From NCBI RefSeq assembly GCF_964355755.1, contig NC_092677.1:5602101-5666100 (forward strand): a stretch of 64,000 nt of DNA. The letters are read 5' to 3'. Below the pieces are notes generated by a model. That model did no database searches, was not told the DNA's origin, and worked only from the letters and a program-made list of their open reading frames with translations. This stretch comes from Antedon mediterranea. Lineage: Eukaryota; Animalia; Echinodermata. Shown in pieces: positions 3,091-42,195 of this stretch. How positions within the stretch are numbered: position 1 is the first letter of the stretch; every line of letters starts with the position of its first letter. The position numbers and the translations under genes were made by a program.

Positions 3091-3123
3091 AATAATAAAC
3101 ATATTTGTTTATTGATCCGCTAG

Positions 3124-6100
3124 ATACTCCTTCTGAACCAATCTTAGAAGAAGTTGAAACAACTCTGACAACCATAAGACTTCTGTTCGATCCACCGAAG
3201 AGTGACGGTGGTCTTGGTATAACATACTATAGAATTGAATACCGTATTGTTGACGAAGGGGAAACAAAGTATAAAGATGTAAAGCCACCAGGCAAGTTCA
3301 AAATATATCACTATTAAACAAAGTATTACGGGAAGCAATGTAAGGCAATTATTATTCCGGCATTTAAGAGTTGAACCATTCAAACGACACCCAATTCTGC
3401 AGCTGTCAGTAAATTGAGTCTAACTGACTATCGCAAGTCATCTAGATACGGGTCTGGCTGTACACGACATCTCTGTTAGTAGGGTCATATCAACATATAA
3501 GGTATAACGTGGTTCTTGTATTCACAAACGATTATTTTGTTGACGTTCACATACTTTAATAACAATAACATGTGAGTTCAACTGATTCTACCCAGAAAAT
3601 GATTTTAAACATCTTATGTTCAGGTGATTATATGCACAAAATGCATCTAAAAGGATGATACAAAATTGGAACTACAATAGAGATAATATAATAAATTTTT
3701 TTATTTTTGTAACTTTGTAGCAAAAGTATTGGAGTTAAGAAATTTGCAACCGAAGAAGCCATACCGGGTGAGAATAGCTGCAGGTAATGTTGCTGGAACT
3801 GGTAACTTTTCCATAGAAAGAACAGCGTTTACATCACGTGGAGGTAAGTAAGATAGGACTGGAGGATCGTTATTTTTTTTTATTATGGACAAAAATATAA
3901 AGAGTGTTATTATCAGTAACATATATACACTCTTGTACAAATAAGTAACAATGTTATTTATTTCTTTCTGTTTGTTTATTTCAGAAAAATCTCTTTTTTT
4001 TAACAATCAAAGGTTTACATTTTTTTAACGTAATCCTATGTCCCAAGGCGTAGTATTCGTCACACTATATATAAATATAATTTAAATTTGTAATATTTCA
4101 ATCGGCCCCAAGCGTGTTGAGTGTTCTCGTGAGGTTTGCGTCAATGTAATTTTTTATTTACAGCAGAATATTAAAACTAGCATTCATCTTCACATTCCTC
4201 TCTGTGACTAAGAATATAATAGATAAGATATTAATGACATAATTATGTAACGTAGATAAAAGGAAATGACTTAATTTTACAAGATCAATCAATGATTCAT
4301 CAGAAGCAATTATTTATGTCATTTTAATCATACAAATGCATTCTGCCAACAGTAGGGAATTCTTACTTTGTGGTACCAAGTACTGACCATCTGAGCACGA
4401 ATCCTTACATTGAAATCATGTTAGCTTTTTAAATATAATATTTCAAATATTTGAGAAATGTGTTGTTTGTTGTTATGCTATATTTTTTATTAACTAACGT
4501 TTGACAGTTGGTCAAGGGAGTTGTATTAAAAGAACTCCTCGCATAAACTATAAAAACACTTATTTGTTAATTCTTTATTATGGTTCGTCTGATTTAATAC
4601 GAGTAACATTACAGTATTATTATGTTTTAATCATTTATTGACTTGTGTAACATAACAACTGTACATGTTTTCCTTTCTATCATAATTTACAAAACAACTT
4701 AAAAAAAATACATATACTAAACCTTGAATTATAATTGATTAAATAACCGCTAGACATTTTGACGTAGGACCCAAGTTGCCAACGGCACCAGCAGCGACAC
4801 TGGACCCTGATAAACACAATGATCGCACTACTCTGGCGCTCAAGATTGCCATCCCAATTGTGGGTGTTTTCATGGCATTGGCATTTGCAGTATTAATGGT
4901 TCTTGCGATTATAGCAATACGAAAGAGAAAGTGGAGAGTTCTTGAGGTATATATATAATATTTATATAATATTTATATATAATATTCAATTTAATACTGT
5001 ATAAACGCTCATTTGGGAAACCCATATTTAGGGGATACTTATATTAAGAAGATACTCTTCCGAACAATGGAAGAAGGAACAATCCCTATAGAGTTTCTGA
5101 TCTATTTATGTCAATTCATAGACATTCAATAAGCTACTGTACAATAGTCCTATTCGACACTTATAAAACTTTGCATTGTTTTTGTTGTTTCTAGGAGGAG
5201 CAATTGTACCGATTTCACACCGGTAGTTCCAGTGTTGAGAGTATACCTTCTCTTCTGAAAACTATTAGTAGAGTAAGTAAACAAAATACACACAACACAA
5301 ATCAATATTTCTATACATTGTTTATAAGTTTGCATATGAACCTTAATATGTTATTATAATTTTTGGCAGGCATATGTAGATGTTAACATTCCATCGATGC
5401 AGTTTAAAAATTTAACATGTGGTAAAAGACGAAATTTCGAGTTTTCGAGAGATAAGTTAAAACTTGGTAGAACGATTGGCAACGGTTCGTTTGGTAAAGT
5501 AGTAAAGGCTGAAGCTAAAGACTTGATTAGACCTGGTTACGTCACAACAGTCGCAGTCAAGATGTTAAAAGGTAATTTTTAAAAACAGCATGCATAATTT
5601 GAGAAGACTTGCAGTATTATTTGTCATGCCATTTTTAATCATCATACACAAATATTGCACAAGTTTTTTCAATACTTATTGAATTAATCCCAAAGAAGAA
5701 GTTAAAGAAGAAAAAGTTCCACGGTACGAAACAAAATATATATTCTGATGTATTTAAATCAATTTTGGAAAATAATATGATCAAGAAGAACATACCAATA
5801 ACACCTAATTAAAAATAAATGTTTAATTATGTCTTCTTTGAAATATTGTGTTTAGAAAATGCTACTGAAGTTGATCGACAAGACTTGTTAAAAGAACTAA
5901 GGGTTATGAAGTTGCTTGATGTTCATCCTAACATTGTCGTCTTGTTGGGATGTTGTACAGATCGTGGTATGTATTTGTCCATCCTTGACGTAAAAGACAA
6001 TACGATATGTTTACATAATAATAGGGTTTATCCCAAATAGTGTGAGCGATGCATAGCGCCACCAGTATAATAAAACTGTATATACTCCTGGTGGTGGCGC

Positions 6101-8762
6101 TTGCACCCAATTTAGGGAGATTTCGTGTCGACGACCTATGATTCATGTAAACTGCATGCTTCTCAAGATTGTGTTTGATGAAAACATTTCATTAATTAAC
6201 ACGTAGGCCTACTTTATAGATATTTCGGACTCTATATCAAACATTTTATATTAACAAAAATAAAGAGTTTAACCATGGACCTATAAATTAGGTCCATGGT
6301 TTAACTACCAACATATCAAGTCAATTTAAAACACGTACTTTAATTTTATAGATTTGTATTTGCTGATATAAATATGATTTAATACAATTTTAAGATTAGA
6401 TCTATTATTGATTTTTGTACAAGTTTCCTTAGATTGTATATGTGTATATGCTGTTGCCGATAATACGAGGTTAAAGGGTTTAATTGAGAATTGATGTTTA
6501 ATATATTTTCCTTTTATTGTATATTTTATTTCTCTCAATAATACGAGTTTAGTGAAGTTAAGAATAATAATGTAGTGTAGGTTTGTGTTTAAAATAATTT
6601 TGAATTACACTTATCGACGCATTACAAGCATGTTATGTTGTTGCCATTAGGACACGTTACTCTCATATATTTTTTCCAATGAAAATTAACTGTGAAAATA
6701 AGATAACAAACACGTGATGTCAGTTGTATAAAAAGTAATTAGTTGAGTAAACGAGTCATTTATTATTTATAATGAACGTATTAAAATTCCAAGGCAGTTT
6801 TAGATTATTATTATTATTACTATTAGTATTAGTAGTAAATACAATTTCTAGTTGCTAAACCTTTCTTTTTATATATTAAATATTAAATCTGTTTTAAAAC
6901 AATGTGTTCTTATACAACCATTTAGATATAATTTCGAAGTTCGTTTTAAATAGTTTTAGAAATACAACTTAAGTTACTTATTTGATTTCTTTAGATCCAA
7001 TTTATGTTATAATGGATTTCCTACCAAATGGGAACTTATTGGGTCATTTGCGAAGCAGTCGACAGAAGGTAGAAAGTTCCAACCGTACAAGTATGAAAAC
7101 GTATCTTAGTCCGACAGATCTTCTACGATACGCGTATGAAGTAGCCAACGGTATGGCGTATTTGGCATCAATGAAAGTAAGTACCGTAGAATGATGTCAT
7201 ATCACCATATTTGGGCACATCACACTTATAGTTTGGTAGTGTAGACAGAGCTTAAAAATATAATGTTGTTGTTAAAACAAATTTGAAATATTATTTTAAA
7301 GGCAGAACAAGTATTAACAAAATACTATGGAAACATAATGTTTGTTTTTTAGTGTATACATCGTGATCTTGCAGCAAGAAACATCCTGTTATCATGTGAC
7401 TGTGTATGTAAATTAGCAGATTTTGGATTGGCACGTGACGTAATTAATGGCGGGGTTTATCAAAGGAAATCACAGGTTAGGCTAACCAGAATTGTGATGC
7501 ATACAGAAATAATCACCGTAGCCCAACTATGTGTTCCAAACACGTTTTTAATTTGTGACTGTTACCTTCAAAAACCATGCTTGAGTTTCTATCTAGACAT
7601 AACAATAGGTAACTGTTTAAAAAAAAAATAAAAATAAATTTCTTTTTATTTCCAGGGTCGAGTTCCAATACGTTGGATGGCATTAGAATCACTTATTGAT
7701 AATGTTTACACAATACAGAGTGATGTTTGGTCGTTTGGGGTGTTGCTTTGGGAAATTATAACTATTGGTAAATCTTTTACACTTTTGATTATTCTTTGCT
7801 CCTCAAATTATTTTCCGTCTGTCACCTCAAATTGATGTTGTGAGGACCAACTAATAAAATAACTAATACAAATGTTATCCCTTCACTATTTCAAGTAAAT
7901 CACTCTCTTTATTTATAGCACGTATCCGATGCATGTTTCTGGTTTTCTTCTTTCAACTTCAAGACTTTCTGCAGTATAAATTTATATTAGACTTTAGTGG
8001 CCCGTAAGTAAAAAAAAGAGTTTAAGGGTTACTTTCTGTAAAAATTTACCTCAGTTCAACTATAAAAGTAATATTTCGTTAAATCAAGTTGTGTTGATTT
8101 TTCAGGATCATACCCGTACCCAGGCATGTCATCTAAACGTCTTATATCAGATTTACAGAAAGGCTTTCGAATGCCAAGACCAGATCACGCAAATGACGAC
8201 GTGTAAGTTATTCATCAATCATAATAATCCTCGTAAAAACAAGTGTCAACCTCCCTCGTCATTTGCACGATTATAAAACATGTTTTAAATTTTGTTTTAC
8301 TTAGGTATCAGATCATGTTAGAGTGTTGGAACACAAGTCCAGAATTACGACCCAGTTTTTTGGAACTAAAACGCAAATTAGAGATAATGTTATCAGAATG
8401 TAGGGTGAGTGATAAGATTATCGGCGAGCACATTTTATCAAATGTGAATCTCAAGAATTATAACCACTTTATGCTAGCCAATTTATTTACTTGCTTACTG
8501 AATATTATCTACAGTGCATGTAAATAAGGATTTTATTTCACATTTTTTAATTTTTTTTAACAAACAGGAATACATTGTATTAGACGAGCTCGAAGAACTT
8601 GTGTATGACTACGCCTTAATCGGTTCCAACGACATCGCCAAAGAGATATTTCCGGAAGTTGCCGAGAATGATTTAGCGACGACTCGTAAGACCGGGAGGA
8701 GTCTTCGGACTGAGCGAACGCCTTCGGGAAAAATACAAACACCATTCGACTTCCCCTTATAA
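3124..8762 (+). CDS. Receptor tyrosine kinase, FN3-TM-kinase, RET/Cad96Ca(Stitcher)-like kinase domain; 5'-incomplete
   Basis: Eleven phase-compatible exons: 3124-3291, 3721-3843, 4768-4946, 5370-5571, 5856-5966, 6995-7176, 7353-7475, 7656-7767, 8106-8202, 8305-8404, 8568-8762. FN3 (FDPPKSDGG...[23 protein letters not shown]), TM ([29 protein letters not shown]), [53 protein letters not shown]. No upstream coding exon was identified in 1-3123. Confidence 0.93.
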
Positions 8763-9692: not shown

Positions 9693-12649
9693 ACTAATAT
9701 AATTTGTAATCACTTTTTATCGGTTTTGATTGATAGTAGGCCCAATTCAATTAATAATAATAATAATAATTTTAAATTTATAAGATTTTAAAATGTCCAA
9801 GTAATGTTTGGTTTAGGTTTGTGTATATTATTATTTTAAACAATATTCTAATTTGTGTATAAGGTTAAATATCACTTCCATTGTTAAAATTATGTAAATA
9901 TAAGTAAAGTATTAATTATTAAATAGGATTTTTAAATGTGACGCCATCTACATGTTTTGCTTGATAAAGAAAAAAAAAGTAGGATACTAGAAATTAAATA
10001 TCATTTGAAAATAATTCTATGATAGACATACTAAAAGGTGGTTGCTATGTGAAATCTAGGCCTGCATCAAACAATGTAAATAATAGCACATCGTAGTACT
10101 AGTAGTAAAGTTGGGGTCTATTATTAGTAACCCGGTAAAATGCTTTACATGCTATCCATATGAGCTTTTAAAAAGTACAAATTATGTGTCACTAATTAGC
10201 TATGGCCTAGGCCTAAATGCGTTTTAACGGATCTAATGAATGACGCCGTAAAGCCATTTGCCATTATTGCGAGAATAGACCCCCAAAGAGTCAAATAGTA
10301 TTTATAAATGTTTTCAATAAAAACAATACATATAGTAACAACTTGTTTAGTATTTATCTTCAGATGTAATAACAGTACTGTAGGCCTGTTATTAGTACCG
10401 GCCGCCGGCCGCCTGTGTAATACCGAATTGGCCAACTTCGGTGTTCCGCGTCTGGTTTTACGATACTAGGCATACTTTTGTTATTTGTTATTCCATCAAC
10501 TTAGGGGGACTCTTATAGGAAAGTTACATATTTTTTCATATATTACAGTTTCTTTTAGTCAGAAAGATAAGCAGCAATTAAAGTATCATGTTTGGAAGTC
10601 CCACCTGGCGAATTCATGCACAGATGAGGAGCATAACTGCATATATGACTAATTATTTGGGGAATGTTTTAAATTGTATTGGACACATTAAAGATAACTT
10701 GAACTTTCTCTATTTTAAAATATGAGAATTGGCAATAAGATAATTTTATAATAATAATAATTTATTTGGGAGCTACACTTTTGAAATAGTGACACACTTC
10801 TTGAATGAAGGTGCGTCCAGAGTCTAGTAATTGTAAATGATAAAAGTTAGAGAAAACTGATGATGAGAAATAAAATGATTTAACAATAGGCCTATTTACA
10901 AGGAAACTTAAACTAAATTATGTACAAAATATTTTAAAAAATAACATTAACAAAAGTAATGCTTTAAAAACAGTGGCACACTTCTTATACTATTGCATGT
11001 TTGCCTTTATCGATTATTATTATTCTTAAAAATTATGAAGTGGTCTAATAAACAATGTCGCTTACAACAGCCTTCTTTAATTGGAGCAACACCGGGCAAA
11101 TGCTTTGATTGAAAGAAGTCTGTTTACGATTGTATGTATTTTTAAAATTTCAATCCTGACCAATCAAGTTGTTCATAGAACATACTAATCAATAATAGGC
11201 TAGGAACCTGCCGCGTACTCGCCCTGTGTACTTGATTGTTTGGCCGATGCGGATAATTATAAAGATTAGGTTGAAGAAGATGGCGAAAATATTAAACATT
11301 GTGCTATACAGTATCACATGAATTGAAGGCACTGAAATTCCATATATTTGGTCAATTTTTAGTTATAGATTTCTGAAAGAAATTGAACTGGCTGTTTTCC
11401 GTTATGTTCGTTAAATATTTCAATTAACCGTTATTACAAACGTGAAGAACGTTATTAACTCCCGTACTAATACACATACTTATGGTTGGGCTTCATGTGT
11501 TAACATAAACTCAATATACTATATATGCTCTATGGTATCAACATCGTTTAAGTTTAACACAGTATAAGTTAAATATAATACGAAATGGGATAGGCGTATG
11601 AAAACAAATATGTACACAGGAAATAACACTTATGTCTACACTTATTTGGGTTGGTGCTTGAAAGAACTCGGATAGCGTGTGCCTCTGCATTTTGCCAATG
11701 ATTTCACTTTCGCTTAAAATTTGTCATTTCTTTGATTTTGTCCAGCTCAATTATGAAGAGGAGAAAATACTCGAAGTACCTATGAAAACATGGAATTTAT
11801 TGCCGTGATTTTGTAACAAACACATAACTTCTTACCAATATTTTATCGAGTATGTATGTGAGTTATACTAGTAGTCGTTATTATTTGTATAAAATTCCAT
11901 TATGTTAATCCATACCGTTAGTGCAGTACAGTAAGTGATTTACCATCATTTCACCCCTTAAGCTCCTTAACAAATATTTTGAAAGTAATAGTCTCGTTTG
12001 GTCCAGGCAATTATCGTCTTTCAAAATATCTGACAAATACGTCTAAGTATATCTAATATTATACTTTTAATAATTAGAAAAAGCTCGAGCGATCATAAAA
12101 TTACAATAAATTTATTTTTTTCTTCATTTAAAATTGTAATATTTTGATTATATGTTTGATTAAAAACCACTATTAAGTCATTATGTAAAAATGCTTGTGC
12201 ATTGAACATGTATGTATTCCAATTTGGTATTCGAATATAACCTCGTTTAATACGGACCGTGAACTTAGTCGTCGTGCAGTGTTATTTTATTTATAGTTAT
12301 GTTATTAAAACGCTTAGCACTCCATTTCTTTTAATTATTAATCAAGCGAGGAATCTGATAACCAAGCAATATGTTACTTTATTTTAAAGCTGGTGCTATT
12401 TAGTATATATTGAACAATCAACGTTTAAGTTTATGCTTAAGTCTAGGCCTAGTAGACAAAACGCAAGTACGGCATTTTGTTTTCAGTTATCCGCTAAAAC
12501 CTCATTCTCTCCGGTGGGCCATTTTGCGGTAGGTAACCGTAGCCTAGGCCATCAACCGCAACAACTCGTTCCGATTTTCTAAGAAGAACCGGATTTGTAT
12601 TTGTATGTATAGGTTTCACACCGTCCTAGTCTAACAATTTACTTGTGAA

Positions 12650-22532
<9,883 letters not shown>

Positions 22533-39919: not shown

Positions 39920-42195
39920 TTACTTTAAATAATCATCAAATGAAGCCATGCTCTCTGCTTGAACAATTTCTCTCTTTTTTATTATAATTTCTTGTTTGGA
40001 AATTAACTGCATTCCAATATTATACCCCTTTGTTTCTGAACCATAACTGTAAACACACACTATTCCTTCTGCTTCTTTTTTCCCTTCTTTTACACTGTAG
40101 TAAGCTAGGTCAGATTCTTCTGCATTCACTGCACCTAGTGTATTAAACTGAGACCAGGTTTTACAACCATCTTTACTTAGGTGAAGTGTAAGATCATTTG
40201 TTTTATTTCCATGACTTGCTATTGCTATTTGGTAGAAATCATCTGTTTTTGTTGGTAAACGTACGATACCACCCTTGATAATAAAATAATTTAAATGCAA
40301 TAAAATAATCGGTCATCAAATTACTGTACTGTAATATTAAAAGGCAAATATAGTTTAACCAACTCAATGAGGCAGAACATGTACATGTGTTGCAGCATTT
40401 AAAGATTATATAATTTACAAACGGTTAATATTTAAGAGTGTTATGGTATATTTCCATAATTACTGTATTGTACAAATCAATCAAAACCATTTGTTTTATA
40501 CAACATTTAAGTAGATATTGAAAAGAGTACTGTATTCACATTGTATTAATGACAGGTAGACGTGCTATAATATAGATGAAACTAAAGAAACTGACAGTAC
40601 CAACCTGGCATTCTGGATTTAGCTTTAACATGGCATCCTCATCCCTGACATCAAATGATTTAAATCCTTTATCACTGTATACATGGAAACGCTGCTTAGA
40701 ATTCTCTAATGAACAGCTGATGTAAACTCTGTTATCTGCATATTCAACAACCTATAAACAAATCACATTATGACAAATAGCCATTTAGAGGTAACTAATA
40801 ATAACAAATGCTGCTATGTTACTAATCTAATCTGAAATAAAATCCACAATTTTCAAGTTAGGCTACTTAATCATACTTGTGTGTGTTCTCCTAAAGTAGC
40901 TGCTGGTGGTTTAACATCAGTTACAATATCCCAGGTGTCACCATTATTAGTACTTGTTATCACAACTAGGCTTTCTGCAAAGCAATTTAAATTTACATTC
41001 ATTTATAATCATTTTAAATCAACTGTTCATTAAACAGTATGTTGGATATTTCTACTATTCAATGAATCATTAACCCAAACTTAGTACTGTATATTAATAT
41101 TTTGATTATTCCAAAACAAAAAAAAACAACAAAGAAACAACATTTATGAATGTTTATGAAATAATTTACTTTCTATACGCTCAACATTTGTCCAACTCCA
41201 AACTCCTGCAACAATTAAAAGCCCTAAATTTAAGCATGCACCATCACCAAGACCTAAAAAATATACAATATTGATTACGTTTTATAATAAATGTTTCATT
41301 ATAAGAAAACGGAAATAAGTAAAGAAAACATATACAGTATTTAAAAATTATTTTAAAACAATTTAAATAAAAGACAAAAAATGTGTTATTTTTACTGAAA
41401 TTACATTGTAAAAAGTAATAACATAGACTTACTCAGACTAACTCCTGGAAAGCCTTTCAAATCAAGTTGTACATCTTCTGGTCCTGTCCAGTTGGCACCA
41501 TTATCATCAGATTTCATCCTTATTATCTTCCTCTCTTTTGTGTTGTTATCTTGTCTAACACACATTAGAATCAATTTTCCCATTTTTTCATTTGTCATAA
41601 GTGGTACTAGATTCTGAAAACTGTGTTTAGAACATTATTCTTTTTGGCTAATATGTCACTTTTTAAAAGATACTTTGTATGGTAATAAAATACCAAGAAA
41701 ATCTCAAACAAAACTTAAAAAATAAATAAATGAAAAAAACATAAATTATTTCAGTTCTTGTTCTATGGTCATATCTCAATTTAATACCTTGTATCATTTT
41801 CATATAAAATCAATTTTGTTTTTTCTTCCCATTCAATCAAACTCTTTCCATTCACTCTTCCTCTTCTCATTATTACATCTGAGTTATTTTGCTCAACAAA
41901 GACAAGAACATGAGAATTTATAATGACTACTGCAGGACGTCTATAAAATAAGAGAAAAACAAATACTGTACATCTAAATGCTATAGATAAAAAGATAAAA
42001 AGAAGAATTTGTATAGTTTCCAAATCAAATAGACAAACCTATAGGCCTACTGTATTTGAAAGGCTCTAACTCTAACCCATTTTAATACTTTGTACAGTTT
42101 CAAAGGATGTACAAGCTATTAAATATCATATATTACAGACAATATTTACCTGAAATTGCTACAGGGTTCACTATCAAATGCTGCAGTTAAATAAC
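39920..42195 (-). CDS. GH33 sialidase-like beta-propeller domain (NEU2/3/4-like), predicted inactive; C-terminus of receptor B
   Basis: FRRPAV (FRIP-like), VLVFVEQ, DVIMRRG, FQNLVPL...GKLILM, Asp boxes SDDNGANW, STNNGDTW and SKDGCKTW, LGDGACLNLGLLIV, CQGGIV, ESDL, IVCVY, all in the order seen in metazoan sialidases. Confidence 0.85.

Follow-up and report, generated by a model that had tools for sequence, protein, structure and literature searches.

Exons and gene models

The window, by which we mean the entire 64,000-nucleotide stretch of Antedon mediterranea DNA that was analysed, is intron-rich and has a GC content of about 30%. Its minus strand carries seven exons, S1 to S7, that encode a domain related to sialidases (Table 1). 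All have AG/GT ends, and they join in phase to give 355 open codons. They continue in phase 1 from the preceding Ig exon, and the RefSeq model P0001 (XP_071959374.1) has identical junctions. The original prediction of seven exons in an open frame, joined in phase to the last Ig exon, is thereby confirmed. An alternative acceptor for S3 at 41613 was ruled out because it creates a stop, and RefSeq uses 41620. P0001 is the identical match among the seven proteins retrieved with S7, all of which come from Antedon mediterranea, and a word-index search with the whole propeller domain as query gave no matches outside Antedon proteins.

Upstream on the same strand lies a gene that has a signal peptide, an Ig ectodomain and a transmembrane (TM) segment, as well as a cassette with predicted immunoreceptor tyrosine motifs (ITIM and ITSM-like). 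RefSeq annotates the stretch composed of Ig exon d, Ig exon e and the propeller as a separate gene of its own (P0001), distinct from this TM/ITIM gene, which counts against the single fused gene originally proposed. Downstream, S3 to S7 recur as a pseudogene duplicate that is approximately 77-85% identical to the copy with the open frame. RefSeq retains a 126-amino-acid model of its last exon (P0015).

Table 1. Positions of the features in the window, listed along the minus strand, with two plus-strand genes at the end.
Feature	Position	Strand	Remarks
Signal-peptide exon and three ectodomain Ig exons	60555-58739	-	
Two similar intronic copies, about 200 bases	~57760-57580 and 56240-56020		on either side of the TM exon region; noted by eye
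Transmembrane exon	56409-56332	-	hydropathy 3.5
First half (strands A-C') of split Ig, then Cys-rich hydrophobic segment	55339-55079	-	Cys-rich segment at 55140-55079
Three spacer exons	53852-53321	-	basic stretch and YxxM motif
Four-exon, 81-codon cassette	52337-52312, 52088-52034, 51650-51604, 51416-51302	-	two ITIM matches and one ITSM-like match
Two micro-exons, spacer to second Ig half	49653-49635, 48253-48237	-	
Second half (strands D-G) of split post-TM Ig	47970-47839	-	0 of 500 shuffles score as high
Ig exon b	47546-47235	-	ends in phase 1; skip to exon d would keep frame
Ig exon c, broken	46178-45845	-	in-frame TGA at 46134-46132; no donor at paralog position; RefSeq isoforms X1-X3 end here
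Small exon, likely source of P0001 start	45055-45040	-	deduced from the three residues with which P0001 begins
Ig exon d, V-set	43441-43148	-	profile match; spliced to Ig e in a contig of run X1
Ig exon e, V-set, directly before propeller	42811-42470	-	both cysteines; a contig of run X1 shows its splice to Ig d
S1, pseudo-sialidase, phase-1 acceptor	42195-42150	-	same junction in P0001
S2	41940-41788	-	R21 equivalent kept (codon completed across S1/S2 junction); R41 lost; D46 loop deleted
S3, carries Asp box	41620-41433	-	BNR_2 match, E 8e-5
S4	41253-41170	-	pseudo-sialidase exon
S5	40974-40877	-	Asp-box-like loop; His187 at E218 position
S6	40751-40605	-	Ser203 at R237 position
S7 and stop codon	40273-39920	-	R304 lost; Glu291 at Y334 position; Ser314 at E355 position
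Pseudogene duplicate of S3-S7	39245-37165	-	three stops, frameshifts
Gene C	35803-29328	-	related Ig receptor gene, described in the text
Receptor tyrosine kinase exons	~3100-8760	+	seen by eye
Membrane-anchored aspartic protease	~12600-22530	+	seen by eye

Fold of the propeller domain

The domain encoded by S1 to S7 is predicted to have an intact sialidase beta-propeller fold. Its AlphaFold model reached a pLDDT of 89.4 and a pTM of 0.89 with an 87-row alignment, which comprised the window domain with 11 members of its family and 75 further sialidases (picked mainly by a length below about 480 amino acids from the 150 listed of 406 profile matches). Human NEU2 entries occupy the top Foldseek ranks (E 3e-16, TM about 0.75, 18% identity). 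The structural superposition that the original prediction of a GH33-like propeller called for also gives human NEU2 as the best match (VIA-align Z 36.9, rmsd 2.4 Å over 317 residues), with bacterial sialidases next at about 35. The Pfam family BNR_2 is matched by the propeller domain at 46.8 bits, with a cut-off of 31.4.

There are three Asp-box-like loops, at residues 103-110, 164-171 and 271-278, and nearly invariant alignment columns hold S103, G107, W110, S164, G168, W171, S271 and W278. The three structural Asp boxes that had been described as preserved are thus present as loops, but two of them are non-canonical. When S7 alone served as the query it matched no Pfam family and gave no useful PDB match. 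Atlas searches found sialidase-like fragments at 0.94-0.95 with low recognition, and the search with the segment that follows the TM found nothing above 0.76. Bacterial origin or contamination is ruled out by the spliceosomal introns and by the position of the domain among animal enzymes in the tree described below.

Loss of catalytic residues

Catalytic positions are given in NEU2 numbering, which we set on the active Antedon enzyme P0019 by the motif context that we take to surround each residue, rather than by the NEU2 sequence itself, and from which the alignment columns were then read. The available text of a survey of animal sialidases names six essential residues, which are R21, R237, R304, Y334, E218 and D46 (PMC3431349). 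The window domain retains R21 alone, as its R15, and has lost the other five. If R41 and E355 are added, which are labels of the original prediction outside the six of PMC3431349, then it matches one of eight catalytic columns. Counted over the 75 other sialidases, the residue expected at each column is found in 65 (R21), 68 (R41), 67 (D46), 74 (E218), 74 (R237), 73 (R304), 73 (Y334) and 68 (E355). All six essential residues are present in 108 of the 159 proteins examined.

In the window domain E218 is replaced by H187, R237 by S203, Y334 by E291 and E355 by S314, R41 and R304 are also lost, and the D46 acid/base loop is deleted in the Antedon copies. Only one arginine of the R21/R237/R304 triad is therefore kept (the R237 column was also read against NanI), and the nucleophile pair of Tyr and Glu (Y334/E218) is absent. 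Realignment to a profile of active enzymes placed identical letters at the catalytic sites, in agreement with the prediction that R21 is kept while R41, the D46 loop, R237, R304, Y334 and E355 are lost. A change that had gone unnoticed earlier is E218 to His, which is shared by all family members with coverage of the site. His at the E218 position and Ser or Thr at the R237 position are pocket residues that are fixed across both of the crinoid genera discussed below.

Because every member of the family, in both crinoid genera, has undergone the catalytic loss and the fold remains intact, the evidence supports a retained pseudoenzyme that is predicted to have lost hydrolysis. Sialic-acid binding by the propeller appears unlikely, since one of the three triad arginines is left and the location of the domain is likely cytosolic. 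The reading as a sialic-acid lectin was rejected with the triad gone.

A vertebrate paralog that lacks most of the catalytic residues was also seen, namely killifish sialidase-3 (P0070, XP_015815384.1). Judging from its residues, stand-alone dead sialidases may exist in fish.

Relatives in crinoids

When 1.84 billion representatives were searched with a profile, 406 of them matched. The 10 matches below 1e-30 all come from Antedon or Anneissia, and no dead Ig-fused relative from other echinoderms is found among the 150 of these 406 matches that were listed. Antedon copies form a multicopy cluster and are 51-73% identical in the propeller domain, while the window propeller and the active Antedon enzyme share 24% identity. 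Dead domains of Antedon and Anneissia are 39-43% identical, compared with 49-56% for active enzymes of uncertain orthology.

Two proteins of Anneissia japonica (P0013 and P0014) are without R41, E218, R237, R304 and Y334, and keep E355 and the D46 loop. A third (P0017) has the same Ig order before a partial propeller, and the same residues are absent from the part that it covers. The Ig profile matched 15 of the 159 proteins examined, and all 15 are members of the dead-propeller family.

A tree built by a quick method from 84 rows, three short ones having been left out, unites the dead domains in a single clade (SH-aLRT 100) that sits on a long stem. This clade is sister to the active crinoid enzymes (95) within the animal group (100), although the long stem weakens the sister placement. 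There is clear constraint on the pseudo-sialidase family across genera, and so the retained domain of the original prediction holds for the family. However, selection on the window copy is not established, given that dN/dS against the pseudogene duplicate is 0.77 and not significant (Fisher P 0.24).

Receptor architecture and membrane topology

Five annotated Antedon models are single-chain receptors with ectodomain Igs, a TM, four to six further Igs and the dead propeller. They are P0002, P0004, P0006, P0158 and P0162, and the accessions of these TM-propeller paralogs are XP_071958824, 071958647, 071958844, 071957667 and 071958852. Window positions 60300-39923 are collinear with P0002, P0004 and P0006, whose domains run from three Igs and the TM through a half Ig, the Cys-rich segment, the spacer and a second half Ig to more Igs and the propeller. 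Both the paralog fusions and the split at the present locus are taken from RefSeq gene models.

The first Ig after the TM is divided by the spacer. The segment after the TM matches positions of about 3-60 of the Ig profile, and the segment after the spacer matches positions 58-99. Second halves beat 500 of 500 shuffles in all six receptors. First halves were equalled by 1, 1, 1, 14, 17 and 32 of 500 shuffles, and are thus weak in three of the six. An AlphaFold model of the split Ig, made with 10 sequences, had a pLDDT of 35. Gene C encodes a signal peptide, two Igs, a single TM, a split Ig without cysteines, two more Igs and a stop. Both halves of its split Ig are unmatched in 500 shuffles, tyrosine-bearing exons lie in the gap, and it has neither the Cys-rich segment nor a propeller.

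The Cys-rich hydrophobic segment is conserved in all family members except P0162, which has a single hydrophobic segment and yet ends in the propeller. It is likely a palmitoylated membrane anchor. Three of the five types of post-TM Ig lack the B-strand Cys in most copies, which favours the cytoplasmic side, whereas Ig b and Ig e have retained the full cysteine pair. Sequons for N-glycans number 33 in four ectodomains, where 15.7 are expected, and 36 in the part after the TM, where 27.7 are expected, counts in which the paralogs are not independent. The propeller has five against 3.0 expected (P 0.18). Because an Ig is split around the spacer, gene C has a single TM, P0162 has no Cys-rich segment and the sequons contrast in this way, the tail after the TM, including the propeller, is likely cytoplasmic.

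It is quite unlikely that the family instead consists of two-pass proteins, wherein the Cys-rich segment would span the membrane, the Ig chain and propeller would bind glycans or cells outside, and the ITIM matches would be non-functional. A marginal second TM is possible at the hydropathy of this segment (1.75-2.0), and the five propeller sequons and the two Ig types that retain both cysteines point the same way. However, such a topology would leave the membrane between the two halves of a single Ig. The Cys-rich segment is also missing from P0162 and gene C and is followed by basic residues, the three tyrosines of the cassette all lie in ITIM/ITSM context, and the Arg triad is gone.

For the family, the five single-chain models and these topology arguments support a propeller at the cytoplasmic end of an Ig receptor. 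Crinoid Ig receptors that end in a pseudo-sialidase are a real architecture that has likely not been described before. No published description was found in the literature searched, which misses most subscription journals and supplements.

In P0158 and P0162, tandem repeats of eight residues are inserted in the fourth post-TM Ig, at the loop position where the first Ig is split.

The ITIM cassette and the break in Ig exon c

The cassette is included in RefSeq isoforms X1 and X2 and skipped in X3. Two ITIM matches arise in shuffles with P 0.002, and the placement of all three cassette tyrosines in ITIM/ITSM context has a shuffle P of 0.0003. The scoring used what we take to be the ITIM consensus, and the matches are predicted motifs.

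All three RefSeq isoforms splice into Ig c and end at its TGA, such that the ITIM-bearing models stop about 4 kb upstream of the propeller. Ig c has this single in-frame stop and no donor where its paralogs splice. At this locus, therefore, a stop codon probably severs the propeller from the ITIM-bearing receptor. The spacers of the five fused paralog models contain no ITIM, while four of these models have a YxxM motif, and no annotated model has ITIMs and the propeller on one chain. The proposal that the propeller is fused to the cytoplasmic end of an ITIM receptor thus survives as regards the end of an Ig receptor, which holds for the family, but is doubtful as regards the ITIMs. The suggested link to the regulation of Siglecs by sialidases is probably a coincidence, because such regulation requires an active enzyme that acts on glycans outside the cell.

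A chain that carries both the ITIMs and the dead propeller could still be made at this locus by skipping Ig c or from alleles with an intact Ig c, a tentative reading that we regard as doubtful. The frame would survive a skip, since the end of Ig b and the start of Ig d are both in phase 1, and the resulting chain stays open throughout; no contig displays such a skip. There is but one stop in Ig c, so the break may be recent or allelic. Some contigs also bear on this reading. They come from X1, which is presumably an RNA run and is distinct from the isoform of that name, and they show presence only and do not inform on expression. One contig (96% identity, 10 differences in 236 letters, so that it may derive from another allele or copy) enters Ig d, with a contig end at 43443, from an exon that ends in AG rather than CAG. 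Such an entry is what Ig b, or Ig c if intact, would give, unlike the start exon used by RefSeq, and a fused transcript may therefore exist. Against the reading stand the three RefSeq isoforms that enter Ig c and stop, and the spacers of the fused paralogs.

A splice between Ig d and Ig e with GT-AG ends is seen in another X1 contig at 96% identity, and this joint is absent from the three other runs examined. None of the X1 contigs covers S1 or joins 42470/42195, and one runs from Ig e 39 letters into the intron.

The exons downstream of Ig c have no lesion in 571 codons, whereas the tandem duplicate has accumulated its stops and frameshifts. This difference is in line with a fused chain at this locus. 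It also argues, along with the splicing of Ig d to Ig e, against the view that the window propeller is a fresh remnant, untranslated since the stop arose in Ig c and not yet decayed, while the paralogs keep the function. Such a remnant would explain the stop and lost donor upstream and the three-codon exon with which P0001 starts. It would also explain the dN/dS against the duplicate and the way in which X1 contigs differ across Ig d and Ig e, with 14 nonsynonymous and 5 synonymous differences at 505 and 125 sites and hence near the site ratio. Even so, we consider it rather unlikely.

Possible functions of the propeller

The reading that we prefer, to which we would give a probability of roughly 60%, is that the window holds a member of a crinoid family of Ig receptors whose C-terminal, non-catalytic sialidase fold likely serves as a cytoplasmic docking scaffold, and that here this fold is probably cut off by the stop. 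Earlier, a scaffold, a glycan binder and a decoy had been offered as alternatives. A non-catalytic scaffold is the role that we infer to be best supported, and a sialic-acid binder is unlikely for the reasons given above.

Under this scaffold reading, an active crinoid gene of the NEU type would have been duplicated and recruited behind a chain of post-TM Ig domains. Catalysis would have been lost once, before Antedon and Anneissia split, with tandem amplification afterwards. The ectodomain would bind a ligand, and the signal would be carried by tyrosine motifs that interrupt a loop in the first Ig of the cytoplasmic part. The Ig chain might keep the propeller away from the membrane, where it could bind partner proteins via its remodelled pocket, with R21 kept and His, Ser or Thr at the E218 and R237 positions. 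The sequenced allele likely yields a receptor terminating behind Ig b, in forms that include or omit the ITIMs. It may also yield an Ig-Ig-propeller product, either on its own or through exon skipping.

Another possibility is that the propeller acts as an integrated decoy or sensor, which would mimic the animal's own cytosolic sialidase or bind a metabolite or a pathogen protein, and so switch the receptor from inside. Its origin from the crinoid's own NEU-type clade, its divergent multicopy cluster and its new pocket residues, fixed in both genera, are consistent with such a role. However, with 24% identity to the active Antedon enzyme it would be a poor mimic, and we know of no pathogen effector directed against sialidases. 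This possibility thus seems unlikely.

A bolder version envisages inhibitory or activating crinoid Ig receptors that hold a dead copy of the animal's own cytosolic sialidase as an intracellular sensor or decoy. At this locus, the choice to splice in or leave out the ITIM cassette and Ig c would switch the receptor between inhibitory, sensor-coupled and truncated forms. This is speculative and improbable. If true, the dead-sialidase sensor would be an animal parallel of plant integrated-domain receptors and of the inside-out sensing of butyrophilins.

Relation to known systems

Vertebrate Siglecs have a signal peptide, an Ig ectodomain, a TM, ITIMs and clustered paralogs, as does the window receptor with its ITIM matches. 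As far as the available descriptions extend, the same features are shared by invertebrate ITIM receptors of the Ig superfamily, such as Hydractinia Alr, the Botryllus receptors and oyster NCAM1. In contrast to all of these, the crinoid tail runs on into folded Igs and a propeller, and its ITIMs are located in a skippable cassette within a split Ig. Pseudokinase receptor tyrosine kinases, in the portions of their literature available, resemble the crinoid family in combining an ectodomain with a non-catalytic folded cytoplasmic domain. The D2 domains of receptor tyrosine phosphatases (PTPs) and the B30.2 domain of butyrophilins are likewise folded cytoplasmic domains with non-catalytic or sensor roles. 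The folds of these proteins are unrelated, and the analogy is one of function only.

The closest echinoderm counterparts are the sea-cucumber proteins AjNLRC4 and AjNLR-new, which the accessible text presents as Ig-TM-NACHT membrane receptors (PMC8699970, PMC13133943). Intracellular Ig domains are reported for AjNLR-new in the part of the source at hand (PMC13133943). Like the crinoid family, these receptors join Igs to an unexpected large domain. However, theirs is a NACHT domain with two TMs and that of the crinoids is a sialidase fold, and the likeness is by description only.

The inactive trans-sialidase of Trypanosoma cruzi is also a pseudoenzyme of the sialidase fold that belongs to a multigene family. 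In the sections available it is described as having a single change, Tyr342His, and as keeping lectin-like binding at the cell surface (PMC5632715). The window domain differs in that it lacks the Arg triad (R21 excepted), the acid/base loop and both nucleophile residues, and in its likely cytoplasmic location.

The window domain is nested within the clade of the animal GH33 NEU2/3/4/5 group (for example, human NEU2 and the sialidase-3-like protein XP_071940874.1 of Antedon), with which it shares the propeller, the Asp-box loops and the RIP arginine. It differs from them in lacking five of the six essential residues and in being fused behind receptor Igs. In its accessible portion, the survey of animal sialidases retained only sequences with all catalytic residues, and the six were fully conserved (PMC3431349). 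Animal sialidases have been portrayed as enzymes that stand alone and conserve their catalytic residues in full. In the crinoid family the sialidase fold is instead reused as a non-catalytic module of surface receptors, retained in two genera and amplified in one, with signalling motifs inserted within a loop of a likely cytoplasmic Ig domain. Its members are candidate immune or self-recognition receptors for crinoids, an echinoderm class poor in immune data, and with them a receptor pseudoenzyme whose fold is new becomes open to testing.

Two genes recognised by eye on the plus strand of the window are a receptor tyrosine kinase, with exons for FN3, TM and kinase domains, and a membrane-anchored aspartic protease that we take to be BACE-like.
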